Source: Chloroflexota bacterium (lineage in GTDB: Bacteria > Chloroflexota > Anaerolineae > Anaerolineales > JBFLVL01). From it: DNA of 64,000 nt. Positions 28,419 to 42,610 of this stretch are shown here, in pieces. The position numbers and the translations under genes are program-made. The stretch lies in NCBI GenBank assembly GCA_040758495.1, contig JBFLVL010000006.1:73498-137497 (forward strand). Direction: 5' to 3'. Under the pieces are notes generated by a model that ran no database searches, was not told the DNA's origin, and saw nothing but the letters and a program-made list of their open reading frames with translations. Every line of letters begins with the position of its first letter. The stretch's first letter is position 1.

Positions 28419-28447
28419 TTGACAGCCGGTCACGCCCCCACTACAAT
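28419..28447 (+). promoter_or_regulatory. Near-consensus sigma-70 promoter
   Basis: TTGACA (28419-28424), 17-nt spacer, TACAAT (28442-28447). It lies 31 nt upstream of a GAGGTG Shine-Dalgarno and ATG 28478. Confidence 0.55.
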
Positions 28448-28477
28448 TGCCCAAATCCTTCCCACATCGAGGTGAAC

Positions 28478-28957
28478 ATGCTCAAACATCGAAATTGGTG
28501 GTTGGTGGCGTTGCTTCTGGCAGCCGGGGGACTGTTGGTCTGGTTCCTGGATTTGTATTTCACCCAACCCCGCGTAGTCGTCACCTGGGAGACGGCCAGT
28601 GAACTTGAGACTGCCGGGTTCAACTTATACCGCAGCACAAGTCCCGAGGGGCCATTCACCCAGATCAACGAAAACCTCCTCTCCGCCCAGGGAGACCCGG
28701 TCATCGGTTCCCGCTACGTGTTTACCGATACGCAGGTGGTGGCTGGGGAGTGGTACTATTACGAATTGCAGGAAGTGGAATTGGACGGCAAGGCCTTCAG
28801 CCAGGGGATGGTCAGTGTGCGAGCCACCTCAGGGAGCATGATTACAACGGTTGTGTCCCTTTTACTTTTCATCGGATCGGTGCTGTGGTTGGTAGCTGGG
28901 TTGGTGGTACGACGTAAAGCAGGACGATCGGTTAAGGGGGAGCGTGAAAAAGCCTGA
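28478..28957 (+). CDS. Bitopic membrane protein with beta-sandwich-like 'WETASE..GFNLYR' domain (paralog 1)
   Basis: N-terminal TM, VVTWETASELETAGFNLYRS...GSRYVFTD...WYYYELQEV, then a C-terminal TM plus RRKAGR. ATG 28478 is preceded by GAGGTG. Confidence 0.7.
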   Translation: MLKHRNWWLVALLLAAGGLLVWFLDLYFTQPRVVVTWETASELETAGFNLYRSTSPEGPFTQINENLLSAQGDPVIGSRYVFTDTQVVAGEWYYYELQEVELDGKAFSQGMVSVRATSGSMITTVVSLLLFIGSVLWLVAGLVVRRKAGRSVKGEREKA

Positions 28958-29753: not shown

Positions 29754-30308
29754 ATGCCGAAGACAACACCCGGCTCACCTCCAGATGAAGAACTATTGAG
29801 GCAGATTGCTTCAGGTGATAGCTCGGCGCTGGAAACCTTGTACGAACGTCACAGCGTTCCGGTTTATAACTACCTGCTGCGACTGGTGGGTGAGGTGCCT
29901 GCCGCGGAAGACCTGTTACAGGAGGTATTTATCGCCGTGTGGCGAGGGGCGGGCAGCTATCGCCAGCTTTCCAGCGTGAAAACCTGGGTGTTAAGCATTG
30001 CCCATCATCGTGCGGTATCCTGGTTGCGACGTCGTCGTAAGTTCAGCCTGTTTGAGGATGTACACATATTGGACAGCCGTCCCGGGCCGGAGCTACAAGC
30101 TTTCAGCGGGTGGGAAGTAGAGCAGCTTCAGCAGGCCTTGGAGGGATTGTCGGTTAACCATCGGGCGGTAATTGAGTTGACCTTTGTCCATGGGTTATCG
30201 TATAGGGAGATTGCTCAGGTAATGGGTTGTCCGGAGGGCACGGTCAAGAGTCGCATGAGTTACGCCCTGCGTCAGTTGACCGGGCTGCTCAAAGGGAAGG
30301 GGGTATAG
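29754..30308 (+). CDS. ECF (group 4) sigma-70 factor
   Basis: Region 2 (DLLQEVFIAVWRG) and region 4 (LSYREIAQVMGCPEGTVKSRMSYA). Confidence 0.9.
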   Translation: MPKTTPGSPPDEELLRQIASGDSSALETLYERHSVPVYNYLLRLVGEVPAAEDLLQEVFIAVWRGAGSYRQLSSVKTWVLSIAHHRAVSWLRRRRKFSLFEDVHILDSRPGPELQAFSGWEVEQLQQALEGLSVNHRAVIELTFVHGLSYREIAQVMGCPEGTVKSRMSYALRQLTGLLKGKGV

Positions 30309-30535: not shown

Positions 30536-30604
30536 TCCCCTAGCCAAATACACATAATTACGCTAAACTATACACATCAACCCCTTGTTGTATTGGAGAT
30601 TTTT

Positions 30605-30814
30605 ATGCGTACAAATGTGATTCTTGACAAAAACCTTGTCGAACGCGCCAAGCACCTCACTGGCATCAAAACCACTCGCGGCGTGGTTCATGCTGCTCTG
30701 GAAACCCTTGTCCGTCTCCGCGAACAAACCCAGGTCCGGGATCTGCGCGGCAAATTAAAATGGGAGGGTGATTTAGCCACCTCAAGGGAAGGGCATGGGC
30801 ATGATTCTGGTTGA
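30605..30814 (+). CDS. vapB: VapB-type antitoxin
   Basis: MRTNVILDKNLVERAKHLTGIKTTRGVVHAALETLV. GGAG lies 6 nt upstream of ATG 30605. Confidence 0.8.
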   Translation: MRTNVILDKNLVERAKHLTGIKTTRGVVHAALETLVRLREQTQVRDLRGKLKWEGDLATSREGHGHDSG

Positions 30815-31205
30815 CTCCACGGTTTGGATAGACTATTTCAATGGTGTGGTTACCCCAGAAACTGACTACCTCGACGCCATCCTTTCGGAACAACTGATCC
30901 TGGTGGGAGATATCATCCTGGCGGAGGTTTTACAAGGGTTTCATAGCGATTCGGACTTTGAGCAGGCTCGCCTCTCACTGGGAAAATTTCAGCAAGCTCA
31001 CATGCTTAACCCGGAGCTGGCCATCCAGAGCGCCCAGAATTACCGTACCTTACGAAAGCGCGGCATCACCATCCGTAAAACCATAGACTGTTTCATCGCC
31101 ACGTATTGTATCCATACTGGTCAAGACCTTTTGCACACAGACAGCGATTTTGACCCCTTCGAAGACCACTTAGGACTCAGGGTTATCCACCCCACAACTC
31201 AGTGA
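30801..31205 (+). CDS. vapC: PIN-domain toxin VapC
   Basis: MILVDSTVWIDYF... with a downstream acidic D in TDSDF. It overlaps vapB. Confidence 0.85.
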   Translation: MILVDSTVWIDYFNGVVTPETDYLDAILSEQLILVGDIILAEVLQGFHSDSDFEQARLSLGKFQQAHMLNPELAIQSAQNYRTLRKRGITIRKTIDCFIATYCIHTGQDLLHTDSDFDPFEDHLGLRVIHPTTQ

Positions 31206-31234: not shown

Positions 31235-31575
31235 GATACAATCCTCACTTCCCTCGGATCACTCGACCCGCGAGGATACCCCTGTCCCTCCGTCGAGGCG
31301 ACGTCCCACCGTCGCCGTTTCCCTTGTTTGGAGGGGTCTCCCTTGCCCCCCATGCGGAGGACAGGCAGGCTCGACCCACGAATAAGAGGGGTCTCGATAC
31401 GCCCCTCGCTTCACTCGGGGCACTCGACCTGCGATATCCTGCTGGTCGAGTAGGTGCCGAAGGCACCGTATCGAGACCACCCTAAGACCAGGGCTCGGTC
31501 TCGATACAATCCTCGCCTTCGGCTCGGATCACTCGACCCGCGAGTAAGAGGGGACACTCGACCCGCGTGTTGAGT
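31235..31575. repeat. Mosaic hairpin-module repeat cluster D
   Basis: Contains cactcgacccgcg anchors and the ggcgacgtcccaccgtcgcc, ggtgccgaaggcacc and gtatcgagacc...ggtctcgatac modules. Confidence 0.85.
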
Positions 31576-31696
31576 GAGTTCCGCTAATCAACGCAAGGGA
31601 TACCCGACGTCCGTTCGGACAGTTATGGAACGAACCCCATACCGTTTCCTTCAATGCTATAATGGACTTGAAAACCCCTCTTTGTGAACGAAGGAA

Positions 31697-32095
31697 ATGG
31701 AAATGGCCAATCGCTATAAAGACTGGTTCCGTCAAGCTGAAGCAGACCTGAAGCATGCCCGGAATGCGCTTGAGGCGGGTGATTTTGAATGGAGTTGCTT
31801 TGCAGCTCATCAAGCCGCAGAGAAGGCGTTGAAAGCCGTATATCAGAGGATAAGCCAGGATGCCTGGGGGCACACTTTGATTATCCTTATGGGAAACCTG
31901 CCTGAACCTATCCATCCTCCAGAAGAGTTAATAGATGCTGCCAGGGCGCTGGACAAACACTACATTCCAACACGCTATCCAAACAGTTTCGATTCCGGGG
32001 CCCCGACTGATTTCTACACACAAAAAGAAGCCCGGGAAGCTATCAGAAACGCGGAGGCCATCCTTGAATTCTGTGGTCATCAGATCAGCGAATAA
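31697..32095 (+). CDS. HEPN-domain protein (HEPN/MNT toxin-antitoxin pair)
   Basis: WFRQAEADLKHARNALEAGDFEWSCFAAHQAAEKALKAV. Confidence 0.8.
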   Translation: MEMANRYKDWFRQAEADLKHARNALEAGDFEWSCFAAHQAAEKALKAVYQRISQDAWGHTLIILMGNLPEPIHPPEELIDAARALDKHYIPTRYPNSFDSGAPTDFYTQKEAREAIRNAEAILEFCGHQISE

Positions 32096-32402
32096 AGAAC
32101 ACATTTCACAGGCCGTTGAAAGCTATGTCTCCGACCTTTGTGCCCATCATCCTGAAATTGAGCGGGTTTTCTGGTTTGGTTCTTGGGTGACTGGTATCCC
32201 CACTCCTGGCAGCGATGTGGATTTGTGTATTGTGGTGACCTCCTCCCATCTCCCAGTGCGTGACCGTATGGTTAACTATTTGCCCATCAGGTTTCCGGTG
32301 GGGATAGACCTGTTTGTGTACACACGTGAGGAATTTGATCGCTTGGATGAGGTGTCTCCCGGGTGGAAAAAGGTCATACTGGCAGGCGTTGAGCTGGGAT
32401 GA
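32073..32402 (+). CDS. Minimal nucleotidyltransferase (MNT) partner of HEPN
   Basis: VFWFGSWVTGIPTPGSDVDLCIV (GS-x-G..D-x-D). The start is uncertain; GTG 32073 is proposed. The track ORF from 31935 overlaps HEPN out of frame. Confidence 0.7.
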   Translation: MVIRSANKEHISQAVESYVSDLCAHHPEIERVFWFGSWVTGIPTPGSDVDLCIVVTSSHLPVRDRMVNYLPIRFPVGIDLFVYTREEFDRLDEVSPGWKKVILAGVELG

Positions 32403-32404
32403 CA

Positions 32405-33050
32405 CGCCCCGCGAAATTCGGCTGATCGAGTAGCGCCCTAAGTACCCCGTAGGGGTACGAAGGGCGCGTATCGAGATCACAATCGGGTCAATACAATACT
32501 CCCCTTCGGCTCGCCCCCATACGGGGGCAGGGATCACTCGACCCGCGGAAGTCTGTTGGTCGAGTAGGTGCCGAAGGCACCGTATCGAGGCCACTGCCGA
32601 GGGGTCTCGATACGATCCTCGCCTTCGGCTCGGATCACTCGACCTGCGAGTAAGAGGGGGCACTCGACCCGCGGAAGTCTGTTGGTCGAGTAGGTGCCGA
32701 AGGCACCGTATCGAGGCCACCCTAAGACCAGGGCTCGGTCTCGATACAATCCTCGCCTTCGGCTCGCCCCCATACGGGGGCAGGGATCACTCGACCTGCA
32801 AGTAAGAGGAGGCACTCGACCCGCGATATCCTGCTGGTCGAGTAGGTGCCGAAGGCACCGTATCGAGACCACCCTAAGACCAGGGCTCGATACAATCCTC
32901 GCCTTCGGCTCGCCCCCATACGGGGGCAGGGATCACTCGACCTGCAAGTAAGAGGAGGCACTCGACCCGCGGAGGTCTGTTGGTTGAGTAGCGAAGCGTA
33001 TCGAGACCAAGGGCATGTATCGAAACCAACTTCGGTAAGGAGAGACCAGG
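32405..33050. repeat. Mosaic hairpin-module repeat cluster E (about 2.5 tandem ~150-nt super-units)
   Basis: Super-units start at about 32636, 32789 and 32933. Each reads cactcgacctgca-agtaagagg-cactcgacccgcg-...-ggtcgagtag-gtgccgaaggcac-cgtatcgagacc...ggtctcgatac-...-gcccccatacgggggc. Confidence 0.9.
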
Positions 33051-33130
33051 TCTCTCAAGACGGCTGGCAGCAAATTTGAACCTTTTCACCCCCTTCCACG
33101 ACTATATGATTGAGACCAAGGGAAACCTCT

Positions 33131-33799
33131 ATGTCACCTCCCTCATCCCCACAAGAATACATACCCTGGTACCTGAACGACAGCCTGGAGCCGGAAGGAC
33201 GACAGGCTGTTGAGACATGTCTGGAGGGGGCAACACAAGCTCAGGTGGAATTTGTCCGACAGATACAAACTTCCCTAAAATTGTTACCCCAAACCGCTCC
33301 CGCGCCCTATGTGCGTGAGCGGTTGCTGGCGCGTGTGGCCCAACCTCAACCACGCTGGCGATTTGCCTGGGCCTGGACGGGGCTGCTGAGCGTCCTGCTG
33401 ATGGTCCTGGTATGGATGGTGCTCAAGCCGGGCGTAGTGCTGCGTTGGGCGGTCTCGCCAGGGGAAGTGGCAGCCTTTCGGGTGTATCGTGCACCCGCGG
33501 ATGATGGGGAGTTCACGCTGGTGCAGGAAGTGACCGCCTCACCAGAAGAGCGCGAGTATCGAGTGATTGACTGGCGACTGCTGCCCGGTTTGGCCTACGT
33601 CTACCTGATAGAAGCAGTGACACCGGAGGGAGGTAGAGCCTTCCAACAGGTGGTTACTGCCGATACCTGGGGCGCCTTGCCCGGGCAGTTGCTGGTGGTA
33701 GTCATCAGCATGTTGATGGCTTACATCCTGGTAAAATATGCACAATACGTATCCATACCGGTGATATGGAAAGGAGGAGGTGTAGAAGGATATATTTAA
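33131..33799 (+). CDS. Anti-sigma-factor-like membrane protein carrying the shared beta-sandwich-like domain (paralog 2)
   Basis: The N-terminal cytoplasmic segment resembles anti-sigma N-domains (YIPWYLNDSLEPEGRQAVETCLE). It is followed by a TM, then VLRWAVSPGEVAAFRVYRA...YRVIDW...YVYLIEAV and a C-terminal TM. Confidence 0.55.
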   Translation: MSPPSSPQEYIPWYLNDSLEPEGRQAVETCLEGATQAQVEFVRQIQTSLKLLPQTAPAPYVRERLLARVAQPQPRWRFAWAWTGLLSVLLMVLVWMVLKPGVVLRWAVSPGEVAAFRVYRAPADDGEFTLVQEVTASPEEREYRVIDWRLLPGLAYVYLIEAVTPEGGRAFQQVVTADTWGALPGQLLVVVISMLMAYILVKYAQYVSIPVIWKGGGVEGYI

Positions 33800-33848: not shown

Positions 33849-35963
33849 ATGAAATATCTAAGATATGCATTAATCGTTGTGCTACTGGTGGCCTTAGCTA
33901 CCGCTGGTGTTGCTTTAGCCGCAGTAGATACCTTCACCAGTACGCCAACCTCAGCGCCACAAACCACGGAAACTGATTGGACGCTTGAATATTCTTTCAC
34001 ATGGCCTGGTGCGGGTACAGATATTGCATTTTGTCTGTACTATGAAGAAGGTGAGACATGGAATGCGAGATTTGTCGCTATCACAGAAGCTTCAGCAACT
34101 GGCGATAATTACACAGCTGTAAATAGTGATCTATGTCCCACCTTAGCTGGGTATGACAGTATTTACTACTATGTCGTTGACTCAGCAAACTTTCAAGCAA
34201 CTGAGACTGAAAGGATCACCTGGGATAATGTAACTGTTCCCGCGGGTGCTACTGTTGGTGTACATGACTTTTTTGCCAGGGTATATACAGGTAGTGATTG
34301 TTCTAACGCAGTGGCTGGTGATGGAGCAGATGATCCCGGAGGTGCTACTTGTGGCACTACGCAAGGTGGCGGAAAGTTTCACCAATTCACGGTTGAATCT
34401 GACCCCGCAACCATTTACGTTTCTGATTCGGGTACCTGCGGTGGTTACGGTGACGTTGGGCAGGACTGTTACCAGTCGTTGGATACAGCACTCAGTAAAG
34501 CCAATACCTTCGGCTCAACTACAATCCGGGTTGTTGGAGATCTGACACTGGACAATAATGGATCGGATCTATCTGGTGCGGGAAGTCTGAGTGCGTTTAA
34601 CGGACTAAGCACCCCTCGGCTCATTTCACCGGGTACCTGCACTGGAACTGCCGTTGGTGATGGAACTTTTTATATGCTGGATGTAGATAGGGCGGTGACG
34701 GTAAGTGACATCACATTCGTAGGTACAGCCTGTAACACAGCCAGTGTCATCGGAGTACGCCTGAGTGATGCCAGTGCTACGATCAATAATGTTACTGTCC
34801 AAAACTTTGATGCAACCAGCCAAATTGGTGTAAAAATCACTGTAGCTGGAACACTCTCGAATAGCACTATACAGAGTAACACGACAGGAGTTGTAAGTGC
34901 GGGTAGTACGATCTCGGGTAACACAATTAGCAGCAACTCTGGTGTTGGGCTTTCTATTACCGGAGGTACTCCCACTGTTTCAGGCAACACCATCTCCAGC
35001 AATGGCGGTGACGGCATCAACTCAGATCAAACCGGTGGTACCTTTCAGGATAACGATGTTACCAGCAACACTGGAGATGGGATCCAAGTACCTGCCGGTT
35101 TTGCTGGGACTATCCTAGAGAACCATATAACCGGTAGTGGCGGTTACGGTGTTAATTTTGGTGGAGCTCCGAACGCCGCTATCGTACTGAAATATAATAA
35201 CATCTACAGCAACACCACTGGTCAATTGGTAAATGGTAGTTCTGTCGCTGTTGGTGGAAACTACCTGGGTGATAACGCCACATCTGGTACGTATGGTGGG
35301 TTTGACGGTGCTATCGTTGGTTCGCCATTTACCCGTACGACTCCGGGCATTAGCACTGCTAATATTTACACACAGGATAACCTGGCAGATGGGAATGACT
35401 GCTCTGATCCATCATCCCATTACACAACTGTTGGTCCTATCCAGCTATGCAATAACACAGGTGACAACACGCTTGATTTCGTTATCGTTGACCTGGGCAC
35501 CGATACACCCTTTGGTATAGGAACAGACCCAGATCAGGGTCAACAATGCTCCAACTACTACGATGTGTATGTTGATCATGGTACAGCGAATACTGGTCAG
35601 GTATGGGTTATGATCCCAGTGAAAGCGGGACTCTGTCAGAGTACATATGTGCCTGCCAACTGCTCGGACGTGCCGCATGCCTACATCAACTCCGGTATGA
35701 GCCGCTGGTCACAAACCGAGAGCTGGTCTTGCGTACCGAACGCTACCAGCCCAACAAAGGTAACAGGTTATAGACCTGCCAGCACTCTCGGCGACACAGG
35801 TTTTGTAGTTTTGGGCGACAACGCCCCCACGGCCATCACCCTGCTTGGTCTGAGTGCCAAGAGCCAGCCCGCAGCTAACCCCATCGCCCTGGCGGTTGCT
35901 GGTCTGCTGCTCGTCGTGCTCCTCGGCCTCGGCGTCCGTCAGGTGGTCCGTCGTCGCATCTAA
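33849..35963 (+). CDS. Secreted parallel beta-helix repeat protein with C-terminal TM + RRRI tail
   Basis: Signal peptide, then PbH1-type repeats (ISGNTISSNSGVGLSI / VSGNTISSNGGDGIN / DNDVTSNTGDGIQV / ENHITGSGGYGVNF). The C-terminus is AITLLGLSAKS...ALAVAGLLLVVLLGLGVRQVVRRRI. A strong SD (aaggag) precedes the start. Confidence 0.75.
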   Translation: MKYLRYALIVVLLVALATAGVALAAVDTFTSTPTSAPQTTETDWTLEYSFTWPGAGTDIAFCLYYEEGETWNARFVAITEASATGDNYTAVNSDLCPTLAGYDSIYYYVVDSANFQATETERITWDNVTVPAGATVGVHDFFARVYTGSDCSNAVAGDGADDPGGATCGTTQGGGKFHQFTVESDPATIYVSDSGTCGGYGDVGQDCYQSLDTALSKANTFGSTTIRVVGDLTLDNNGSDLSGAGSLSAFNGLSTPRLISPGTCTGTAVGDGTFYMLDVDRAVTVSDITFVGTACNTASVIGVRLSDASATINNVTVQNFDATSQIGVKITVAGTLSNSTIQSNTTGVVSAGSTISGNTISSNSGVGLSITGGTPTVSGNTISSNGGDGINSDQTGGTFQDNDVTSNTGDGIQVPAGFAGTILENHITGSGGYGVNFGGAPNAAIVLKYNNIYSNTTGQLVNGSSVAVGGNYLGDNATSGTYGGFDGAIVGSPFTRTTPGISTANIYTQDNLADGNDCSDPSSHYTTVGPIQLCNNTGDNTLDFVIVDLGTDTPFGIGTDPDQGQQCSNYYDVYVDHGTANTGQVWVMIPVKAGLCQSTYVPANCSDVPHAYINSGMSRWSQTESWSCVPNATSPTKVTGYRPASTLGDTGFVVLGDNAPTAITLLGLSAKSQPAANPIALAVAGLLLVVLLGLGVRQVVRRRI

Positions 35964-35981
35964 CAGCATCCTCATCAGGTT

Positions 35982-36011
35982 GGAGAAATCACCCCAAAGG
36001 GTGGTTTCTCC
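35982..36011 (+). terminator. Hairpin downstream of the beta-helix gene (weak terminator candidate)
   Basis: ggagaaatcaccc-caaa-gggtggtttctcc with one G-U pair. No clear U-tract follows. Confidence 0.35.
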
Positions 36012-36037
36012 TTCCTGAAAAACCTGTGTTTTGCATA

Positions 36038-36066
36038 TTGCTTTTTTAGAATGATTAAGCTACAAT
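36038..36066 (+). promoter_or_regulatory. Candidate sigma-70 promoter of the small peptide gene
   Basis: TTGCTT (36038-36043), 17-nt spacer, TACAAT (36061-36066). Confidence 0.45.
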
Positions 36067-36125
36067 ATGCCCAGAATTTATAGTGGATTTGCTGTTATTT
36101 ATCACTACAGGAGAGTGAGGGCAAT

Positions 36126-36299
36126 ATGGCCATGATAGAAACAAAACCCCAAACTAAAAAACAGGAGGAGTTGCTGCGGAAAGCCTATGAGAAGCCGCAG
36201 GTAAAGCTCACTCTACCTCTGGAAACCCGGGCTGGTTCACCCCTAGGTGTTAATCCCTTTGACCCCTTCAACATGGGGCCGGATCCTAACCAGCAATAG
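36126..36299 (+). CDS. Free-standing 57-aa peptide, precursor-like (not on the ORF track because under 60 aa)
   Basis: ATG 36126 is preceded by AGGAGAG. The translation is MAMIETKPQTKKQEELLRKAYEKPQVKLTLPLETRAGSPLGVNPFDPFNMGPDPNQQ. It has its own promoter candidate and its own terminator. Confidence 0.55.
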   Translation: MAMIETKPQTKKQEELLRKAYEKPQVKLTLPLETRAGSPLGVNPFDPFNMGPDPNQQ

Positions 36300-36350
36300 T
36301 TAACCGGTTTATGCATCCAGGTTGGTACTAGTACTGAAGTAACGAAATAA

Positions 36351-36387
36351 AGGCGGTTCGCTGTTCACAAAGCGAATCGCCTTTTTT
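36351..36387 (+). terminator. Rho-independent terminator of the peptide gene
   Basis: ggcggttcgc-tgttcacaaa-gcgaatcgcc (one G-U pair) followed by T6. Confidence 0.75.
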
Positions 36388-36397
36388 CATTTCGTAA

Positions 36398-36705
36398 GGT
36401 AGCTGCTCAGGCATCCCTCGCCAGGGCTGGCAGGGCCCCCCATACGGGGGGCAGGCCCCCCATAGAGCTTGTGAAGAAATTATGGTTTCAGACAAAAGGA
36501 GAGCAGAGAAGGTGATCTCGGATCAGCTTACCGTTGCCTCCCAAGCCAGACCAAAGAGGTTGCCCTGATGCCCTGCTTCGAGCAGGCCCCCCTACGGGGG
36601 CAGGCAAAGTCCGTTCAAACGGACTGGAAGCCCAGTGCATTTTTTAGTCGGATTTCATCCGACTTTGGTTCTCAGCCTGAGAATTTATTCTCAGGCTTCA
36701 GGCTC
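36398..36705 (+). mobile_element. Truncated, longer copy of the GGTAACTGCTCAG-TIR MITE
   Basis: The left end ggtagctgctcaggcatccctcgc matches 44829-44852. The internal cagtgcattttttagtcggatttcatccgactttggttctcagcctgagaatt-attctcaggc is near-identical to 44958-45021. The right TIR is replaced by mosaic cluster F. Confidence 0.7.
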
Positions 36706-37265
36706 ACGAATAAGAGGGGTCTCGATACACCCCTCGTTCCACTCGGGGCACTCGACCCGTGGAAGTCTGTTGGTCGAGTAGGTGCCGAAGGCACCGTATC
36801 GAGACCAACACCGAGGGGTCTCGATACGATCCTCACTACGCTCGGATCACTCGACCCGCGAAATTCGGCTGATCGAGTAGCGCCCGAAGTACCCCGTAGG
36901 GGTACGAAGGGCGCGTATCGAGATCACAATCAGGTCAATACAATCCTCGCTCCGCTTCCCCCATGCGGGGGGCAGGGGGCACTCGACCCGCGATATCCTG
37001 CTGGTCGAGTAGGTGCCGAAGGCACCGTATCGAGACCAACACCGAGGGGTCTCGATACGATCCTCGCTACCCCCCATGCGGGGGGCAGGGGACACTCGAC
37101 CCGCGATATCCTGCTGGTCGAGTAGGTGCCGAAGGCACCGTATCGAGACCACCCTAAGACCAGGGCTCGGTCTCGATACAATCCTCGCCTTCGGCTCGCC
37201 CCCATACGGGGACAGGGATCACTCGACCTGCAAGTAAGAGGAGGCATTCGACCCGCGAACAAGAT
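36706..37265. repeat. Mosaic hairpin-module repeat cluster F
   Basis: Same modules as clusters D and E (cactcgacccg, ggtcgagtaggtgccgaaggcaccgtatcgagacc, gtaccccgtaggggtac, gcccccatacgggg). Confidence 0.9.
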
Positions 37266-37294
37266 AGGCTCAATCCTCAAGATATTCGGTATAA

Positions 37295-40200
37295 TTGATA
37301 CCCATGGATAGCTCCCTCACAACAAAAAACATCCTCCGCTGGTTCGTCGTTGTCTCGTTGTTAATCGCTACTCCCTGGACAGGGTGGATTTTAGCCCAAG
37401 GGCAATCTGAAGATCAGACTCCTAATGTGCATATAGTACGCTCCAACGATGAGGGGATTTTGGTGGAATATCTCATGCCCAACCCCGAAGTATTCACCGA
37501 GGCTGTGCAATCAGGAGTTGGAGGACGTCTGGTTATACCTGGAATGTCCCTCTACCAGCAGCCTGGCAAACCACAATTACCCATACAAAGTGTACTGTTG
37601 GGTATACCCCCCAGCGGAGAAGTATCGCTCAATGTGATCCAGGCAGAAGGGGTGATTTTACCAGGTACCTATGATGTCCCTCCTTCCCCACAACCAGCAT
37701 CCATGGAGGAAGATCTCCAACCAGCAGGATGGCTTATTGGTGGGGAGGGTTACGTGGGTCTGCAGACTTTTCCCCAATCCCCGGCAAGCATAACCGATGA
37801 GGCCTGGCTACGCTCGCAGCGCTTAATTCGCCTGGAACTTTTCCCTTTTCAGTACAACCCCAGCCAAAAGACCCTGGTCTGGTACCCTCGATTGCTGGTA
37901 GAGATACGCTTCAGCTCCCAGGCCCGAAAGGCTGCCCAATCCGCTGCCTCAGGATGCCTCTTTGCCCGATGTTTTGAGGCGGCCTCGTTTGAGTCGGTGT
38001 TACAGAGTGCCTTGTTGAATTACGATCAGGCAAAGACATGGAGAATACCCCCCTATCAAAACCCGCAATTGAGCGCTCCAGCACCTGTATTTGCGGATTT
38101 TGCCCCTTCAAACTCCGGTGAGAAATACAAAATCGTTGTGGATACGGATGGTCTCTACACAGTGACGTATGCCGATCTGGTAGCCGCGGGTATGAATGTG
38201 GGCAGTGTAAACCCCCAGAATTTCCAGATGACCAATCAAGGACGGGGGGTTGCCATCTACGTTTCCGGTGAGGGCGACGGCAGTTTCGATCCTAGTGATG
38301 GGATATATTTTTACGGCGAGCAGTTCCGGGGAGATTATCTGGCCAGCCTGTATGCCTCCGAGGGGGAGGACTGGCTGTATCTATTTAACGGCGGACGCAA
38401 ATCGGATTTCAATGCCACCATGCTGGAGAAGTACACGCAAGACAATGTCTACTGGTTGACCGTCGGTTCTACGTCCGGTTTGAGGATGACGACAGTATCA
38501 GGAGACCCAACCGGAAGTTTGGCCTCCACTCCCCAGACTTTCACCGAGACGATACATGCTGAACAACAGATCGTCTGGTGGACATTTCACTTCACCAGCG
38601 AGGACACCTGGTTCTGGGATCACATCAACGATATCACCGCTCCCGTTACCAGGAATTATTCGTTTACGTTGACCAACGTAGCAACCGGAGCTTACAATGC
38701 CACTATCCGTGCCGAGGTAGTGCCCCGGAATCATAACCCGGATTCCAGCCCGGATCACCACACGAAGTTTTATATCCAGAACACCTCCCAACTGATAGAC
38801 GATGCCTATTGGGATGGGAAGGATCGTTATTCTTTTCAATCTGTCATCCCCCAGTCTCAATTGGTAGAAGGAAACAATATTCTCATTTTATGGGCTGAAA
38901 AGACCGCGGGGATGACATCCGACAGGCTGTACTTTGATTGGTTTGAAGTCGAGTATCAACGCCTCTATCAGGCACAAAGCGACGAGTTGACCTTTGGAGG
39001 TGACACTGCCGGTACCTGGAAATACCAGGTGCCAGGTTTTACCTCGGCAGACATTCGGGTGTTTGACATTACAAATCCCCTCCTGCCCACGCAATTTACT
39101 TCCCCGGAGATCGTTGGGGCTTCAGGGACATTTACTGTGACCTTTGAGGCCACCCACGGTGCCGGAGCGGAATTTATTGCTGCGGGGTCTTCCGGTGTAC
39201 ATCCCCCCAAGCAAATTACTCGTTATGTACCCCCCAATTTTGCCGGCCTCCCCGAAGCGGATTACATCTTTATCACCCATGCCGATTTCGCTGCCACCCT
39301 ACAAACCTTAGCGAATTTCCGTGCCGGGCAGGGTATGAGTACTTTGATTGTAGACGTAGCTGATTTGTACAACGAATTCAATTACGGCATCTACCATCCT
39401 ATAGCGATAAAAAATTTCCTGGCGTACACCTTTGCCAACTGGTTAAGCCCTCCAGAGTATGTGCTTTTGGTAGGGAGTGGACACTGGAACTTCCATGGGT
39501 CGCCAAACTACGGCAACCCAGCAATTTATATGCCACCCTATCTGGCTTTTCTTGACCTCAGCCAGGGTGAGGTAGACAGCGCCAACCAACTGGCCATGTT
39601 GGTGGGTGATGACATTTTGCCGGATGTGCATATCGGGCGGCTGCCGGTGAACAATACCACCGAATTAAACACGGTAATAAACAAAATCATCGCCTACGAA
39701 GGTGCGCCGGAAGCAAGCTGGCAGACATACTTTACCTTTGTGGCTGATAACACCCCTGACTCGGCGGGCGATTTTGTAGCCATGTCCGAGAGCGCTATCA
39801 GCAAATTGCCACCGGGAGCAAATGTAGATCGGATTTATTCGAACGACTATGCCAATGATGCGGCACAGGTTCGAACCGCTATCGCTAACAGCCTGAACAT
39901 AACCGGCACCCTGGTTTTGAATTACGTTGGACATGGCTCTATTCAGCGTTGGGCGCATGAAGAGATATTCCGAAACGCGGATGTGGCTACGCTGACGAAC
40001 ATCAACCAATTGCCTGTCGTGCTCTCCATGACCTGTCTGGATGCGTATTGGATTTACCCCAACCAACAGAGCCTCATCAATGAGATGTTGTTCTACACCA
40101 ATGGTGGCGCAGTGACGACCTTTTCGCCAACGGGTTTAGGGGTAGCTACCGGCCATGATGTCTTGCACGCTGGATTTTACGATGCCGTTTTCCATGATAA

Positions 40201-40453
40201 TGAGCAGGTCATGGGGCCGGTGACTTTGTTGGCGAAATTGGACCTCTATGCTACGGGACAGGATTTGGATTTGATCCAAACCTTCACCATTTTTGGTGAC
40301 CCTGCGCTTCACATTCAGGTGCCCAGCAGCCTGGAACCAACACCTACTCCGACACCAACCTTCACTAATACACCCACACCTACTTTTACTCATACCCCAA
40401 CCCCAACCCCGACTCCTTCTAAGATATTCATACCTATAGTGGTTCATCGTTAA
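37295..40453 (+). CDS. Secreted peptidase C25 (gingipain/PorU family) homolog with Thr/Pro-rich C-terminal tail
   Basis: Signal peptide and a GKPQLP propeptide-like motif. The catalytic region reads DYIFITHADF..LLVGSGHWNF..HIGRLPV..NYVGHGSIQRW..LSMTCLDAYW (His/Cys dyad context). The C-terminus is TPTPTPTFTNTPTPTFTHTPTPTPTPS. An alternative ATG at 37304 lies just downstream of a TATAAT at 37290-37295. Confidence 0.8.
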   Translation: MIPMDSSLTTKNILRWFVVVSLLIATPWTGWILAQGQSEDQTPNVHIVRSNDEGILVEYLMPNPEVFTEAVQSGVGGRLVIPGMSLYQQPGKPQLPIQSVLLGIPPSGEVSLNVIQAEGVILPGTYDVPPSPQPASMEEDLQPAGWLIGGEGYVGLQTFPQSPASITDEAWLRSQRLIRLELFPFQYNPSQKTLVWYPRLLVEIRFSSQARKAAQSAASGCLFARCFEAASFESVLQSALLNYDQAKTWRIPPYQNPQLSAPAPVFADFAPSNSGEKYKIVVDTDGLYTVTYADLVAAGMNVGSVNPQNFQMTNQGRGVAIYVSGEGDGSFDPSDGIYFYGEQFRGDYLASLYASEGEDWLYLFNGGRKSDFNATMLEKYTQDNVYWLTVGSTSGLRMTTVSGDPTGSLASTPQTFTETIHAEQQIVWWTFHFTSEDTWFWDHINDITAPVTRNYSFTLTNVATGAYNATIRAEVVPRNHNPDSSPDHHTKFYIQNTSQLIDDAYWDGKDRYSFQSVIPQSQLVEGNNILILWAEKTAGMTSDRLYFDWFEVEYQRLYQAQSDELTFGGDTAGTWKYQVPGFTSADIRVFDITNPLLPTQFTSPEIVGASGTFTVTFEATHGAGAEFIAAGSSGVHPPKQITRYVPPNFAGLPEADYIFITHADFAATLQTLANFRAGQGMSTLIVDVADLYNEFNYGIYHPIAIKNFLAYTFANWLSPPEYVLLVGSGHWNFHGSPNYGNPAIYMPPYLAFLDLSQGEVDSANQLAMLVGDDILPDVHIGRLPVNNTTELNTVINKIIAYEGAPEASWQTYFTFVADNTPDSAGDFVAMSESAISKLPPGANVDRIYSNDYANDAAQVRTAIANSLNITGTLVLNYVGHGSIQRWAHEEIFRNADVATLTNINQLPVVLSMTCLDAYWIYPNQQSLINEMLFYTNGGAVTTFSPTGLGVATGHDVLHAGFYDAVFHDNEQVMGPVTLLAKLDLYATGQDLDLIQTFTIFGDPALHIQVPSSLEPTPTPTPTFTNTPTPTFTHTPTPTPTPSKIFIPIVVHR

Positions 40454-40519
40454 CTGGAGTGGAAGCGAAGTGGTTGATGTGAAATTTAGGGAGGGATTTG
40501 TTATCCCGATGCAAGGATC

Positions 40520-40888
40520 AGGTTCGGCTCGCCTACGGGGGGCAGGCCATACGGGGGGCAGGGGACACTCGACCCGCGAGGATACCCCTGCCCCTCCGTC
40601 AAGGCGACGTCCCACCGTCGCCGTTTCCCTCGGGGGGCAGGGGATACTCGACCCGCGGAGGTCTGTTGGTCGAGTGTGCCCGAAGTGCCCCGCAGTGGCA
40701 CGAAGGGCATGTATCGAGACCAACATCGAGGGGTCTCCCTTGCCCCCCATGCGGGGGGCAGGCAGGCTCGACCCGCGAGGATACCCCTGCTCCTCCGTCA
40801 AGGCGACGTCCCACCGTCGCCGTTTCCCTACTCGACCCGCGATATCCTGCTGGTTTCGTTATTCAAGTGATGCGTAACTCCTGAGGAT
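40520..40888. repeat. Mosaic hairpin-module repeat cluster G
   Basis: Contains two copies of ctcgacccgcgaggatacccctgc-cctccgtcaaggcgacgtcccaccgtcgccgtttccc. It ends with the terminal module ttcaagtgatgcgtaactcct (tgcgtaactcct at 40871-40882). Confidence 0.85.
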
Positions 40889-40910
40889 ATTGGCTTGAAG
40901 AGCAGGAAAT

Positions 40911-41462
40911 ATGGCTAGTAGCTGGAATGAACCGTTGCGCCCAGGCAAAGAGGGGCTGATCGCCTTCAAGGTCAAGGGTGACAGCATGGTTCCTATCCTG
41001 CACCCTGGGGATATCGTTCATGTAGACCCTGGGCCAGGGATATCCTATCGTGTGGGAGATGTGGTGCTCATATTCCGTAAGGAGGAGCTGATCACGCACC
41101 GCTTGCTTTATAAAGTTGTAGAAGGCTGGTACACCAAGGGGGACAATCGTCTGGACCTCGACCCTGTGGTTAATGAACAATCTATGATTGGTAAGGTGGT
41201 CGTTTTGGAGAAGGCCGGGAAAAGGATTGACCTTCAAAAGCCCTTTTGGCGAAGTGCCAATCGGGTAATGGGAAGTCTGCATTGGCTTTTCGTTTTATGC
41301 TTTGATAAAATTCGGTTGTTTGCGTCTTGGAGCAGACTCAACCGTTATCCCTTGTTTAAGCGTTGCGGAAGGAAAACTATGCTCATTATCCAGAAAGCCA
41401 TCTCCGTCACGATACTTTTTAGTGGAAGGGTGTTGGCGATTTTTGATCGGAGGGGAGGATGA
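40911..41462 (+). CDS. S26B (SipW/Sec11/archaeal-type) signal-peptidase-like serine peptidase
   Basis: Boxes KGDSMVPIL, GDIVHV, LITHRLL (His rather than Lys) and YTKGDNRLDLDP. It has no N-terminal TM; a hydrophobic segment sits near the C-terminus. Confidence 0.65.
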   Translation: MASSWNEPLRPGKEGLIAFKVKGDSMVPILHPGDIVHVDPGPGISYRVGDVVLIFRKEELITHRLLYKVVEGWYTKGDNRLDLDPVVNEQSMIGKVVVLEKAGKRIDLQKPFWRSANRVMGSLHWLFVLCFDKIRLFASWSRLNRYPLFKRCGRKTMLIIQKAISVTILFSGRVLAIFDRRGG

Positions 41463-41758
41463 GGTTGACTTTGGAATCGCGCCCTCTTTGCCATCCCGAG
41501 GTGGTCGGTCGGGTCGTGGAGGACGAAGCGGTCATCGTCCTGCCGGAAAAGGGGCAGGTCAAGGTGCTGAACGCGGTAGGAGCGCGCATCTGGTCTCTGC
41601 TGGATGGCTCCCGCAGGGTGAGGGAGGTCGTTGAGGAGTTGTGTAATGAGTACGACGTCACGCACGCGGAAATGGAGTCCGATGCTCTGGCTTTTTTAAC
41701 GGAGTTATTAGAGGAGGGGGCAATCGTATTGTCTTCGGAAGAGATTCCAGAGAGTTGA
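41459..41758 (+). CDS. PqqD-family protein (RiPP recognition element-like)
   Basis: VVEDEAVIVLPEKGQVKVLNAVGARIWSLLDGSRRVREVVEELCNEYDV...DALAFLTELLEEGAIV. ATGA overlap with the peptidase gene. Confidence 0.8.
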   Translation: MRLTLESRPLCHPEVVGRVVEDEAVIVLPEKGQVKVLNAVGARIWSLLDGSRRVREVVEELCNEYDVTHAEMESDALAFLTELLEEGAIVLSSEEIPES

Positions 41759-41785
41759 TCCTTGTCCCATAAAAAAGTATTTTCT

Positions 41786-42610
41786 ATGAAGGTCAGGTAT
41801 CTGATTGGGACAATTGTCATTTTCACCCTGGCGGGTTTAGGCCTTGTCGTTTTTACCCGTGTGGGAAGCGCGGCTGTTACCCTGGTCAGTTTTACGGCTA
41901 CACCTGGTGACAGTAAGGTGACGCTGGATTGGGAAACGGCCTCGGAGATTGATTTCGCCGGCTTTTTTGTCCAGCGCAGTACCCAGGAAGATGGCACCTA
42001 TGCTCGCATCAGCCCCTTCATCCCTGCGGAGGGGGATAGCATTGTGGGGGCAAGGTACAGTTTTGTGGACACGAATGCGGTCAATGGCAGCACCTATTAC
42101 TACAAGCTGGAGGCCATTAATAACGACCAGACGTACGAACTGCACGGCCCCGTTTCGGCTACCCCTGGCAGCTCAATAACCACCACTCCCACGGCCACCC
42201 GCACACCCACCCCAACGACTTCGGGCACGGTATCTCCCAGCCCCACACCCACGCGCACACGGACCCCAACGCGGACCCCTACCCGTGGTACCCCTACCAA
42301 GACTCCAACAGGCACGATTTCCCCCACCGCAACCGACACCCCCTCAGCCACCCCCTCTCCGGAATTCACGGCAACACCGACCGTGACTCCTACCTTTACG
42401 CCCTTTGTAATCTCACTGCCGACTCTGGCCCTGCCCTCAAGGACTCCCACGCCAACGGAAACTCCCCTTCCCCCAAGTGAGGAGGTAGGGGGAGGCCAGG
42501 GATTGCCTATAGGTTTTCGCCTGGGGTTGCTTGCCTTGGGGATTAGCGTGGTGGGCGGAGGGTTGTTCGCTGCGGCGATATATTTCTTTTATAGACGAGG
42601 TGGCTGGTGA
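41786..42610 (+). CDS. Membrane-anchored protein with the shared beta-sandwich-like domain (paralog 3), Thr/Pro-rich linker and C-terminal TM
   Basis: TLVSFTATPGDSKVTLDWETASEIDFAGFFVQRS...GARYSFVDT...YYYKLEAI, then about 100 aa of TPTPT-type linker, then TM + YRRGGW. Confidence 0.75.
   Translation: MKVRYLIGTIVIFTLAGLGLVVFTRVGSAAVTLVSFTATPGDSKVTLDWETASEIDFAGFFVQRSTQEDGTYARISPFIPAEGDSIVGARYSFVDTNAVNGSTYYYKLEAINNDQTYELHGPVSATPGSSITTTPTATRTPTPTTSGTVSPSPTPTRTRTPTRTPTRGTPTKTPTGTISPTATDTPSATPSPEFTATPTVTPTFTPFVISLPTLALPSRTPTPTETPLPPSEEVGGGQGLPIGFRLGLLALGISVVGGGLFAAAIYFFYRRGGW

Follow-up and report, generated by a model that had tools for sequence, protein, structure and literature searches.

A window of 64,000 nucleotides from a Chloroflexota genome (the whole stretch of DNA analysed here) contains a reading frame for a 57-residue peptide with the outline of a processed precursor, 4.6 kb upstream of genes for a PqqD-family protein and a peptidase of the S24/S26 type. 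The locus raises two questions: is this short reading frame a gene, and, if so, is its product a substrate of the two proteins encoded downstream or part of a larger system?

The peptide family and its expression signals

The reading frame occupies positions 36126 to 36299 of the forward strand (the strand of every feature below unless stated), starts with ATG and gives exactly the translation quoted in a preliminary description of this DNA. Its NCBI annotation is ‘MAG: hypothetical protein AB1345_04620 [Chloroflexota bacterium]’, and no Pfam or NCBIfam family model matches it at E ≤ 10. With the single peptide as query, a word-indexed protein search returned only the self-match, an exact-sequence contig look-up returned no record and a tblastn-type scan of JGI metagenome contigs returned no relatives. 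Phmmer detected seven small homologs at E < 1e-3 among 1.84 billion representatives, and a profile search detected at least 120 clusters at E < 3e-12 and 1,322 at E ≤ 10. The family matches listed are all 42 to 78 residues long, and those with a named source all come from Anaerolineae or other Chloroflexota. Related loci in genomes were retrieved with an 18-sequence alignment of closer family members as the query; 48 of the 74 genome loci (L032 to L079) were excluded as FAD-dependent oxidoreductases that share PEIIHELEL, with GxGxxG read from their translations.

The family consensus is RKPYxKPxI..L.LETRAG[ST]PL...DP, and Y21, L32, E33, R35, A36, G37, P39, P44 and D46 are invariant in the eight-sequence phmmer alignment. 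Among 120 profiled members, numbered with A36 as position +1 and R35 as -1, the leader has Y at -15 in 119, P at -12 in 117, I or V at -10 in 118 and T, V or I at -2 in 119, while the core has S or T at +3 and P at +4 in 119 each; position -1 can also be occupied by K or Q. With YxxPxV and T-R-A-G, the preliminary description had singled out the positions that this large family conserves best. In a 22-codon block of 35 distinct homologous DNAs, differences at codon positions 1, 2 and 3 number 3,282, 2,038 and 8,106, respectively, and differing codon pairs are synonymous in 5,955 cases versus non-synonymous in 3,463. Judged by this dominance of third-position substitutions, the frame is kept in relatives, a point on which the preliminary description had made its reading depend, and is under purifying selection.

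Translation signals are conserved as well. The Shine-Dalgarno region (36109 to 36122) comprises the AGGAGAG reported previously (36109 to 36115) and GAGGG (36118 to 36122), 4 to 5 nt 5' of the ATG at 36126, and a purine motif of this kind is found 4 to 18 nt 5' of the ATG in 39 of 42 distinct family genes. On the 3' side of the reading frame, a hairpin followed by six T residues (36349 to 36387) may act as an intrinsic terminator or attenuator. The terminator scan gives a stem of 14 bp with seven G-C pairs (36349 to 36384) before TTTTTT, and folding of 36300 to 36400 yields -34.9 kcal/mol (z = -5.1), a value equalled by none of 200 shuffles. Of 13 other core loci that were folded, 12 have a strong hairpin at the equivalent site, between the peptide gene and the downstream peptidase gene C25a; the exception is L020, whose 31-nt gap has none. 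Hairpins between precursor and enzyme genes are typical of operons in which the precursor precedes its enzymes. No RNA family was matched in Rfam over 35500 to 41000 (E ≤ 1).

The proposed promoter is less secure. The letters TTGCTT (36038 to 36043), a 17-nt spacer and TACAAT (36061 to 36066) are present in the AT-rich gap 3' of the preceding gene, which encodes a secreted protein (the cargo, below). The promoter scan omits this site because TTGCTT matches TTGACA at only three of six positions, and promoter-like sites occur in the region at chance level (12 observed versus 9.8 expected). Given the weak -35 match and the chance-level site count, the sequence at 36038 to 36066 is regarded only as a candidate sigma-70-type promoter. 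Short length and weak promoter consensus match could suggest a chance intergenic reading frame that is no gene. This reading is refuted by the family search, the coding test and synteny: at least 120 homologs with invariant residues, third-codon-position substitutions, a conserved Shine-Dalgarno sequence and a conserved gene order leave it with practically no probability.

Within the peptide, residues 1 to 35 or 1 to 36 would form a leader and AGSPLGVNPFDPFNMGPDPNQQ the core. The leader motif is K-A-Y21-E-K-P24-Q-V26 (36186 to 36203) and the junction motif is L-E33-T-R35-A36-G37 (36222 to 36236). The leader could be cut between A36 and G37, in the manner of a signal peptidase, or between R35 and A36, as in lasso peptides, which would place Thr at -2. 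A Sec signal peptide was considered and rejected because residues 1 to 35 are charged, without any hydrophobic stretch; only the -3/-1 pattern of T-R-A fits. A double-glycine (C39) leader was rejected because positions -4, -7 and -8 are unfitting.

Genomic contexts and partner proteins

Genes of the family occur in two contexts. In the core context, the order is FN3 membrane protein, HprK-like kinase, (ECF sigma/anti-sigma), peptide, C25a, (S26-like), PqqD, FN3 protein, C25b and ABC transporter. The segment from the peptide through C25a, S26, PqqD and the FN3 protein fn3TP to C25b recurs in L018 and L020 and, without S26, in L015 and L021; the same core order is found on the truncated contigs L012, L017, L023, L024 and L028, and genes for the FN3 protein fn3_183 and the HprK-like protein lie upstream of the peptide in L007, L023 and L028. 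A reciprocal search from PqqD yielded 390 metagenome relatives. Among the PqqD-anchored metagenome loci with DNA upstream of C25a, the peptide gene lies 5' of C25a in 10 of 12, and L089 and L119 have no peptide there. Homologous small reading frames near PqqD, S26B and C25 genes, which the preliminary description had proposed to look for in other genomes, are thus a recurrent arrangement. The core locus of the window sits in a large exopolysaccharide (EPS) locus with glycosyltransferases, Wzx/Wzy, Wzz/BY-kinase and a sulfotransferase.

In the satellite context, the peptide gene lies 3' of a gene for a secreted, adhesin-like protein (GEVED is an adhesin domain in the literature) that ends in P[ST]A[VI]xLxx[FL]xA, a transmembrane (TM) helix and a basic tail. 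A cargo-type tail is encoded directly upstream of 21 of the 34 family genes with upstream DNA, and C25a directly downstream of 13 of the 37 with downstream DNA. For 29 distinct peptide genes with both flanks, the neighbours are cargo only (16), C25a only (6), both (3) or neither (4). One contig carries three tandem pairs of cargo and peptide genes, and several cargo-type genes stand without a peptide gene beside them. Most family genes are >10 kb from any PqqD, and action in trans must therefore be assumed. The placement of peptide genes 3' of genes for secreted proteins with a C-terminal anchor tail is the strongest regularity at these loci and was absent from the preliminary description. The two contexts together point to an undescribed, peptide-dependent system for protein sorting or signalling. 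A literature search found no description of a peptide/PqqD/C25 system in Chloroflexota or of the tail motif.

The cargo gene of the window (33849 to 35963) encodes a secreted 704-residue parallel beta-helix protein (Beta_helix/NosD in Pfam). Its C-terminal tail (approximately 35823 to 35960) consists of APTAITLLGLSAK, a linker, a TM helix and RQVVRRRI, and its NCBIfam matches are weak and generic, to several CTERM-sorting models. The motif P[ST]A[VI]xLxx[FL]xA is long and strand-like and lies 8 to 15 residues before the TM helix; with the helix and the basic tail, it is a candidate C-terminal sorting signal for which no curated model matches.

The PqqD-family protein (41459 to 41758; PF05402, E 7e-19) is predicted to supply the leader recognition element (RRE). 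Its best NCBIfam match is lasso_PqqD_Bac (45 bits versus a cutoff of 80), and its best PDB relatives are the lasso B1 proteins TbiB1 (5v1u, E 1.2e-10), 9x90 and TfuB1, which all rank above PqqD 3g2b. The S26B-like (Ser/His) peptidase (40911 to 41462; Peptidase_S24, E 1.2e-7) is a candidate leader peptidase whose gene overlaps the PqqD start by 4 nt; both genes are at the distance from the peptide gene, 4.6 kb downstream, that the preliminary description had given. Its best model is archaeal-type signal peptidase I (E 2e-10), and the Ni-SOD maturation protease is also matched (E 1.5e-4), with both scores under cutoff; no PDB match was found, and a word-indexed protein search gave only the self-match. 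In 15 orthologs, which lack an N-terminal membrane anchor, the motifs SMxP, tHRl and GD are kept, with SM, P, HR and GD invariant and T and L at ≥80%. An anchor-less peptidase with these Ser/His/Asp motifs would suit a non-Sec substrate of its own. About one-quarter of core loci lack the gene (L015, L021, L097, L105, L107, L110, L137 and L152), and the protein therefore cannot be the universal leader peptidase. The earlier suggestion that the peptide is the partner of PqqD and S26 is supported by conserved synteny with PqqD, the S26-like peptidase and C25 and is weakened by the missing S26-like genes and by the distance of most members from PqqD.

The HprK-like P-loop kinase (28944 to 29750), which was also absent from the preliminary description, has the motifs H...GxSGxGKTT...NDD, and H...GxSGxGK[ST]...DD is invariant in four orthologs. 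NCBIfam matches are HprK_rel_B (E 2e-5, 23.9 bits versus a cutoff of 200) and ScmC (E 1.6e-3, far below cutoff); sequence and profile searches of the PDB gave only P-loop-level matches, PEPCK among them, and an AlphaFold2 single-sequence model was unusable (pLDDT 36.6). Core loci keep its gene 5' of the peptide gene, and it is a candidate kinase for the Ser or Thr of AG[ST]P. The kinase gene is overlapped by that of fn3_183 (28406 to 28957), an FN3-like domain flanked by TM helices, whose orthologs adjoin the kinase in L007, L023, L028, L100, L105, L107 and L126. An ECF sigma factor (29754 to 30308; NCBIfam sigma-70 ECF models) and an anti-sigma factor with an extracytoplasmic FN3-like domain (33110 to 33799; NCBIfam antisigma, E 8e-7; Pfam fn3, E 0.003) are also encoded. 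Orthologs of the latter are found in L013, L015, L028, L080, L105 and L107, and the pair lies directly 5' of the peptide gene in L028, L105 and L107.

Two PorU/gingipain-like cysteine peptidases are encoded downstream. C25a (37295 to 40453; Peptidase_C25, E 1.4e-83) has a signal peptide, a C25 propeptide domain (Propeptide_C25) and a Thr/Pro-rich C terminus, and its best PDB matches are PorU (6za2) and RgpB. C25b (42607 to 44763; Peptidase_C25, E 9e-81), also conserved in core loci, has a lipobox-like LNGC near the N terminus and matches PorU 6za2 (E 8e-20) and RgpB (E 9e-18). Both keep the catalytic GHG and TC motifs and match the NCBIfam model of the T9SS sortase PorU below its cutoff of 420 (C25a, E 9e-88, 295 bits; C25b, E 6e-65, 220 bits). 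In a check for Arg specificity, an Asp of C25b aligns with RgpB Asp163, and the C25a alignment is shifted there. Between PqqD and C25b, and conserved there in core loci, lies fn3TP (41762 to 42610), a membrane protein that combines a Thr/Pro-rich linker with an FN3-like domain; the first strand of this domain, AAVTLVSFTA, is itself a cargo tail motif. An ABC exporter with its ATPase fused to an ABC-2 permease (45051 to 46943, reverse strand; Pfam ABC_tran and ABC2_membrane) is a candidate exporter of the peptide, and L086, L100, L106 and L111 likewise have an ABC homolog beyond C25b, on the opposite strand.

A proposed role for the peptide and its alternatives

The peptide is a small gene product encoded with an RRE protein and has a conserved leader and junction, as expected of an RRE-dependent precursor in general. 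The explanation that best accommodates both contexts, with a probability of about 0.6, is that it is an RRE-dependent precursor of leader and core and serves a conserved set of genes, which handles tail-anchored cargo, as its dedicated small substrate. From the partner domains and motifs, we infer the following course. The recognition element of PqqD would bind the leader at K-x-Y-x-K-P-x-(I/V), as lasso B1 proteins do, and the HprK-like kinase, aided by PqqD, might modify the Ser or Thr of A-G-(S/T)-P. The leader would then be cut at E-T-R-A-G, by the anchor-less S26B-like peptidase, where present, between A36 and G37 in keeping with the -3/-1 rule or, alternatively, between R35 and A36, which would give the lasso arrangement of Thr at -2. 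Because the peptide has no signal for export, and both C25 peptidases and the cargo motif are extracytoplasmic, export must be postulated as a further step; the neighbouring ABC transporter could export the product of approximately 21 residues, which is rich in Pro, Asp and Gly. Outside the cell, this product would act with the two PorU-like peptidases and the FN3 membrane proteins, a set that would handle surface proteins ending in P[ST]A[VI]xLxx[FL]xA, a TM helix and a basic tail. As individual cargo genes are followed by their own copy of the peptide gene, the peptide is probably needed in proportion to cargo, whether as a consumed co-substrate, as an adaptor or as a signal of cargo load to the FN3 anti-sigma/ECF sigma pair.

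A bolder version, to which we would give rather long odds, makes the matured peptide a consumable sorting partner, for which PorU-like C25 transpeptidases would exchange the cargo tail and which would serve as a handle or linker to the envelope or exopolysaccharide. RRE-guided cleavage, perhaps with phosphorylation, would expose a Gly or Ala N terminus before export; C25 would remove the motif, TM helix and basic tail, and the new C terminus of the cargo would be joined to the peptide. Such ligation would account for the presence of a peptide gene beside individual cargo genes.

Other explanations share parts of this evidence. The ECF sigma factor and FN3 anti-sigma factor, which are found in the core and also near satellite pairs (L003, L013, L080 and L082), together with a precursor that comes first in its operon and is followed by a hairpin, and with a conserved ABC exporter, could indicate a pheromone-like signal, exported at a dose set per cargo operon and sensed by the anti-sigma factor, which would tune the ECF regulon with no sorting chemistry. 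This is unlikely, since the pair is not in every core locus within reach and the invariable linkage of two PorU-like peptidases is left unexplained. The tight placement after cargo genes, with some gaps of 1 to 30 nt that suggest translational coupling, is also what would be expected of a small, unprocessed cytoplasmic accessory that targets or holds the cargo tail, with PqqD, S26 and the kinase serving another substrate; the missing export signal and the many copies far from PqqD agree with this. Near-identical peptides nevertheless accompany very different cargo, and the conserved part is a lasso-type leader with a junction motif rather than a fold-sized domain. The peptide, furthermore, heads the PqqD/C25 operon without preceding cargo in L015, L018, L021, L028, L100 and L105 to L107, and in core loci no second small gene stood out as a candidate substrate. 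An accessory of this kind is therefore quite improbable.

An ordinary lasso precursor of the paeninodin (phosphorylated) type, with its cyclase C and B2 protein encoded elsewhere in the genome and C25 and cargo as unrelated neighbours, would account for the leader pattern in paeninodin spacing (YxxPx(I/V), T/V/I at -2 and A-G), for the Asp that 84 of 120 members have at core position 9, for a PqqD nearest to lasso B1 proteins and for the HprK-like kinase, which is present as in phosphorylated lasso clusters (PMC8498205, PMC10368454). The enzymes of lasso formation were not encountered in the DNA searched. No asparagine-synthetase-like cyclase was matched by Pfam or NCBIfam in the 49 distinct window reading frames scanned, no transglutaminase-like B2 was found among these, small reading frames between 30.5 and 45 kb included, and no SGGxDS PP-loop motif occurs in reading frames of ≥300 residues in 808 kb of 117 related loci. 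Known lasso peptide rings have sizes of 7 to 9. The first acidic core residue of the family lies at positions 6 to 15 (92 of 120 at 7 to 9), and that of the window peptide, D46, is position 11 from A36 or 10 from G37, outside the range of a lasso acceptor. Peptides of Thermoflexales core loci have cores of the GGGVLVDP type, AGSPL, the would-be ring residues, are far more conserved than is usual in lasso cores, and several copies per genome stand behind cargo genes. The lasso reading is, on this evidence, very doubtful.

On the most conservative reading, the family is a new candidate class of ribosomally synthesized peptides (RiPPs). It is in any case a large unannotated family of small proteins (at least 120 clusters and possibly >1,000) in a poorly studied, environmentally abundant phylum, in which lasso-type leader recognition (PqqD/RRE and an HprK-like kinase) is tied to an anchor-less S26B-like peptidase and two PorU-like C25 peptidases. 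To our knowledge, neither type of peptidase has been seen in such a role. If the peptide is a co-substrate or load signal, this would be a new coupling of ribosomal peptide maturation to surface assembly in the monoderm-like Chloroflexota; if ligation occurs, it would be the first RiPP-type peptide serving as a sortase co-substrate.

Comparison with known systems

Phosphorylated lasso systems (paeninodin, BsfA) are composed of a precursor A, an RRE protein B1, an HPr-kinase homolog K and an ABC exporter D, and in one of them the kinase homolog phosphorylates core Ser3 in a reaction accelerated by the RRE (PMC10368454). The present system resembles them in its leader, with Y-x-x-P-x-(L/I/V) and T (rarely V or I) two residues before an A-G start, in the frequent Asp at core position 9, and in the B1-like PqqD, HprK-like kinase and ABC exporter of the cluster. 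Provided that cleavage is between R35 and A36, the family Tyr is at -15, as in paeninodin, and differs from the -17 of other lasso leaders (PMC10368454). The paeninodin precursor (MKKQYSKPSLEVLDVHQTMAGPGTSTPDAFQ..., PMC11594732) aligns without gaps with the family consensus and agrees at Y, KP, T(-2), AG, PD and F.P; the similarity is weak (11 of 31 identities, BLASTP E 5e-4 as a single comparison, hhalign P 0.005) and concerns a partner picked by hand rather than found by search. Unlike lasso clusters, the locus has an S26B-like Ser/His peptidase beside PqqD in place of a transglutaminase-type B2, a near-invariant ETRAGSPL that spans the junction and the start of the core, numerous gene copies in a genome, tied to surface-protein genes, and two C25 peptidases as obligatory neighbours.

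The S26-like peptidase shares its S26B Ser/His signature with SipW, which serves biofilm matrix proteins, and the Ni-SOD maturation protease, with sub-threshold matches that include the SipW model. As with dedicated S26 peptidases, the presumed substrate is small and has small or aliphatic residues at -3 and -1 (T-R-A before G). It differs from SipW and the Ni-SOD protease in lacking an N-terminal anchor, in the coupling of its gene to that of PqqD and in scores below cutoff.

Among solved structures, C25a and C25b are most similar to PorU of the type 9 secretion system (T9SS), with the catalytic His and Cys motifs kept, and like PorU they are extracytoplasmic and linked to proteins that share a C-terminal sorting region. 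Their scores are, in contrast to PorU, under the model cutoff, and their host belongs to the Chloroflexota; no T9SS components were seen in the 64-kb window. The cargo signal also departs from T9SS, being a short motif, TM helix and basic tail of sortase or exosortase type instead of a beta-sandwich C-terminal domain, and a ribosomal peptide and an RRE are encoded in the locus.

No exosortase, archaeosortase, rhombosortase or class A to F sortase was found among the window reading frames scanned, and we know of no sorting system with a companion peptide gene. The resemblance to PEP-CTERM/exosortase and LPXTG/sortase systems lies in the tripartite cargo tail of motif, TM helix and basic residues, in the many diverse cargo proteins per genome and in the position of the core within an EPS locus.

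Peptide gene and family

The ORF at 36126 to 36299 (+) translates into the 57-residue peptide quoted in the preliminary description, and NCBI lists an identical protein, annotated as hypothetical, from a Chloroflexota MAG. The proposed Shine-Dalgarno sequence (AGGAGAG, 36109 to 36115) indeed lies 5' of the ATG, as does GAGGG (36118 to 36122), and the proposed terminator is a 14-bp hairpin (36349 to 36384) followed by T6, which ranked second among terminator-like sites in a scan of 13 kb and folds far more strongly than shuffled sequences (z = -5.1). The proposed promoter hexamers exist (36038 to 36043 and 36061 to 36066), but just 3 of the 6 bases of the -35 element agree with the consensus. 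Promoter-like matches in the peptide region occurred at chance frequency in a scan, and a promoter at these hexamers is a guess. Rfam holds no family matching the peptide region. The position of the post-peptide hairpin is kept in the peptide-C25a gap of related loci (L017, L023, L100, L105, and L126). A stem sequence, GCGAGCTTCG...CGAAGCTCGC, is common to these hairpins on several unrelated contigs, sometimes without the T-run, so that the hairpin may have a role beyond that of a generic terminator.

A word-indexed protein search with the peptide found nothing beyond the sequence itself, and neither Pfam nor NCBIfam contains a model for it, even at an E value of ≤10. Exhaustive phmmer searching of 1.84 billion representatives returned seven further proteins of 45 to 78 aa (E values of 5e-7 to 1e-3), and Y21, L32, E33, R35, A36, G37, P39, P44, and D46 are invariant in the eight-sequence alignment. 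The profile from these sequences matched 1,322 proteins at an E value of ≤10. The best 120 of these all have E values of <3e-12 and lengths of 42 to 78 aa, none carries a Pfam domain, and their named sources are all Anaerolineae, Anaerolineales, or Chloroflexota MAGs.

With A36 as +1, conservation among these 120 members covers R at -18 (107), K at -17 and P at -16 (111 each), Y at -15 (119), P at -12 (117), I/V at -10 (118), L at -4 (118), T/V/I at -2 (119), S/T at +3 and P at +4 (119 each), L at +5 (111), D at +9 (84), and D at +12 (100). E at -3, R at -1, A at +1, and G at +2 occur in 120/120, counts that are not independent, as these residues belonged to the selection pattern. Position -1 is also K or Q in wider family sampling, with A-G still invariant. 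The preliminary description had named loss of the frame in relatives as evidence against the gene; the frame is conserved, because differences at codon positions 1, 2, and 3 (3,282, 2,038, and 8,106 in 35 distinct DNA sequences) are dominated by the third position and an SD-like motif precedes the ATG in 39 of 42 distinct family genes. Loci L149 (9995 to 10509) and L150 (around 960) are arranged differently, in that the gene immediately after PqqD encodes a variant peptide, ..KPYQ[AT]PA[MV][IV]YEAPLEVRAG[LS]PLGKRFLIPDLTDPAGLWKKK, with a basic C terminus.

Core and satellite loci

Related loci were obtained by exact-protein look-ups (L001 to L005 and L080 to L084), by a genome scan with a close sub-alignment (true members, L006 to L031), and by a reciprocal metagenome scan from the PqqD-ortholog alignment, in which 80 of 390 relatives were kept (L085 to L164). 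Another 48 genome-scan loci (L032 to L079), from Acidimicrobiia and others, were rejected as family members; they encode FAD-dependent oxidoreductases (GxGxxG read from translations) with only the word PEIIHELEL in common.

The core order is peptide, C25a, (S26-like), PqqD, fn3TP, and C25b, and it occurs in genome loci L012, L015, L017, L018, L020, L021, L023, L024, and L028 and metagenome loci L100, L105, L106, L107, L111, L112, L114, L117, L126, and L148. Genes for fn3_183 and the HprK-like protein often lie upstream, sometimes with an ECF/anti-sigma pair, and an ABC transporter often lies downstream on the opposite strand. The peptide is upstream of C25a in 10 of the 12 PqqD-anchored loci whose DNA reaches 5' of C25a (absent there in L089 and L119), and roughly three quarters of core loci have the S26-like gene. 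In the satellite context, the peptide gene directly follows a secreted-protein (cargo) gene on the same strand, with gaps of 1 to about 200 nt; one contig has three tandem cargo-peptide pairs, and two others have two each. Both flanks could be read for 29 distinct peptide genes, of which 16 adjoin cargo only, 6 C25a only, 3 both (including the window), and 4 neither. Several MAGs supply core and satellites alike. In four Thermoflexales loci (L015, L018, L019, and L021), an ORF 5' of the peptide has a C terminus that, read by eye, resembles a nucleotide-sugar dehydrogenase or low-molecular-weight phosphatase. Loci L162 to L164 have an HprK-like gene adjoining a PqqD gene, and neither a peptide of this family nor a C25 gene could be detected in the vicinity; these loci may represent a system that is related yet distinct.

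The core locus is embedded in a large exopolysaccharide locus, which makes up the window and has genes for priming sugar transferases, GT4 and GT2 glycosyltransferases, Wzy-like, Wzx-like, and Wzz/BY-kinase proteins, a sulfotransferase, a BcsB-like protein, GHL15, and sugar-nucleotide enzymes. The cluster comprises fn3_183 (28406 to 28957; an FN3-like domain between two TM helices), the HprK-like P-loop protein (28944 to 29750), an ECF sigma factor (29754 to 30308), an anti-sigma factor with an FN3-like ectodomain (33110 to 33799), the 704-aa secreted beta-helix cargo (33849 to 35963), the peptide, C25a (37295 to 40453), the S24/S26 peptidase (40911 to 41462), PqqD (41459 to 41758), the FN3/Thr-Pro-rich membrane protein fn3TP (41762 to 42610), C25b (42607 to 44763), and an ABC exporter (45051 to 46943, minus strand).

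Insertions separating these genes include VapBC and HEPN/MNT pairs and REP-like repeat arrays. The toxin-antitoxin pairs VapB/PIN (30593 to 31205) and HEPN/nucleotidyltransferase (31697 to 32402) separate the ECF sigma gene from its anti-sigma gene; the two are adjacent in L028, L105, and L107. Dense REP/MITE-like arrays (31250 to 33050, 36400 to 37260, 40470 to 40880, and 46970 to 47650; 14 repeat families with units of 25 to 170 nt) sit between genes of a cluster that relatives keep compact. ORFs within them (e.g., 36568 to 37125 and 40470 to 40877) have no Pfam match and are probably spurious. Two copies of a 96-nt element (36601 to 36696 and 44926 to 45021; 91% identity), each with small hairpins, flank the 8.3-kb block of C25a, S26, PqqD, fn3TP, and C25b, and the first copy has no Rfam match.

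Partner proteins and cargo tails

Among solved structures, the PqqD protein best matches lasso B1 leader-binding proteins, namely, TbiB1 (E value of 1.2e-10), 9x90, and TfuB1, which all rank above PqqD itself. The S26-like peptidase, whose gene overlaps the PqqD start codon, lacks an N-terminal anchor and in 15 orthologs carries SMxP, tHRl, and GD motifs, in which SM, P, HR, and GD never vary and T and L are kept in ≥80%; these motifs correspond to the Ser/His/Asp signature that marks signal peptidases of the ER/archaeal type (S26B). C25a and C25b match PorU (6za2) and RgpB with scores under the curated PorU cutoff, and the GHG and TC catalytic motifs are kept. C25a has a signal peptide and C25b a lipobox-like LNGC, and both are therefore predicted to act outside the membrane. 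The HprK-like protein conserves H...GxSGxGKTT...NDD motifs; its HprK_rel_B and ScmC matches fall far under cutoff and its PDB matches are only at P-loop/PEPCK level, so that its assignment as a kinase is weak.

Satellite cargo proteins begin with a signal peptide and differ in their passenger domains, which include SpaA-like, FN3, beta-helix, and GEVED, an adhesin-type ligand-binding fold (PMC10952558). Their common C terminus consists of P[ST]A[VI]xLxx[FL]xA, 8 to 15 residues, a TM helix, and an Arg/Lys tail; generic C-terminal sorting models give weak, subthreshold matches through the TM and basic part. The motif P[ST]A[VI][TS]Lxx[FL]xA in the window cargo tail (35823 to 35860) is also the first strand of the fn3TP FN3-like domain (GSAAVTLVSFTATPGDSKVTLDWETASE, conserved in orthologs), and the FN3-like domains of fn3_183 and the anti-sigma factor start at the next strand, immediately past the TM helix. 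This arrangement suggests, by inference only, strand complementation between cargo tails and the three membrane proteins.

Proposed maturation and relation to known systems

The observations of the preliminary description are confirmed; its interpretation of the peptide as a precursor for the nearby PqqD and S26B proteins is partly supported. In the proposed mechanism, the RRE would guide recognition of the leader, the HprK-like kinase would probably modify the peptide on Ser/Thr, the leader would be cleaved at the ETRAG junction, and the matured peptide would be exported and its function coupled to the C25 peptidases and tail-bearing cargo. There are two readings of the cleavage site. Cleavage between A36 and G37 would fit the signal-peptidase -3/-1 rule (T/V/I at -3 and A at -1) and A-G invariance even where K or Q precedes A36. 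Cleavage between R35 and A36 would fit the lasso rule (T/V/I at -2) and make Ser core position 3. Although the peptides are nearly identical, their genes are duplicated beside cargo genes, which argues for a dose-dependent role, as a consumed cosubstrate or adaptor or as a load signal to the FN3 anti-sigma/ECF pair, rather than a catalytic or purely structural one.

Lasso leaders require Tyr, Pro, and Leu for B1 binding and have Thr, rarely Ile/Val, at -2, and an HPr-kinase homolog can phosphorylate core Ser3 with RRE assistance (PMC10368454; PMC8498205). The paeninodin precursor (PMC11594732) aligns with the family consensus without gaps over 31 positions with 11 identities, which match at positions with defined functions, namely, the recognition-motif Y and P, the hydrophobic residue at P+2, Thr at -2, the A-G start, and core P-D at 8 and 9 (BLASTP E value of 5e-4 for one chosen comparison; hhalign P value of 0.005, with a probability of only 7%). 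The invariant Ser/Thr of the family would likewise be residue 3 if cut between R35 and A36. From this alignment, the leader rules, and the Ser/Thr position, the family appears either to descend from phosphorylated lasso precursors or to have converged on them. However, it fails on the defining lasso features of a nearby cyclase/B2 and a fixed acceptor Asp: the window ORFs scanned included no asparagine-synthetase-like cyclase or transglutaminase-like B2, a crude screen of 808 kb for the PP-loop motif revealed no lasso cyclase in related loci, and the Asp lies variably at positions 6 to 15 (11 in the window peptide).

No description of the peptide family, tail motif, or gene set was found in the literature or in curated family databases. 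Each part is of a known kind (RRE-dependent precursor, clan-CD sortase-like peptidase, C-terminal sorting tail), whereas the way they are combined, the occurrence of an S26B-like peptidase next to an RRE, and the peptide-cargo gene pairing are new. A categorically new sorting chemistry is unlikely. The placement of the core locus within an exopolysaccharide biosynthesis locus recalls the EPS linkage of exosortase systems.
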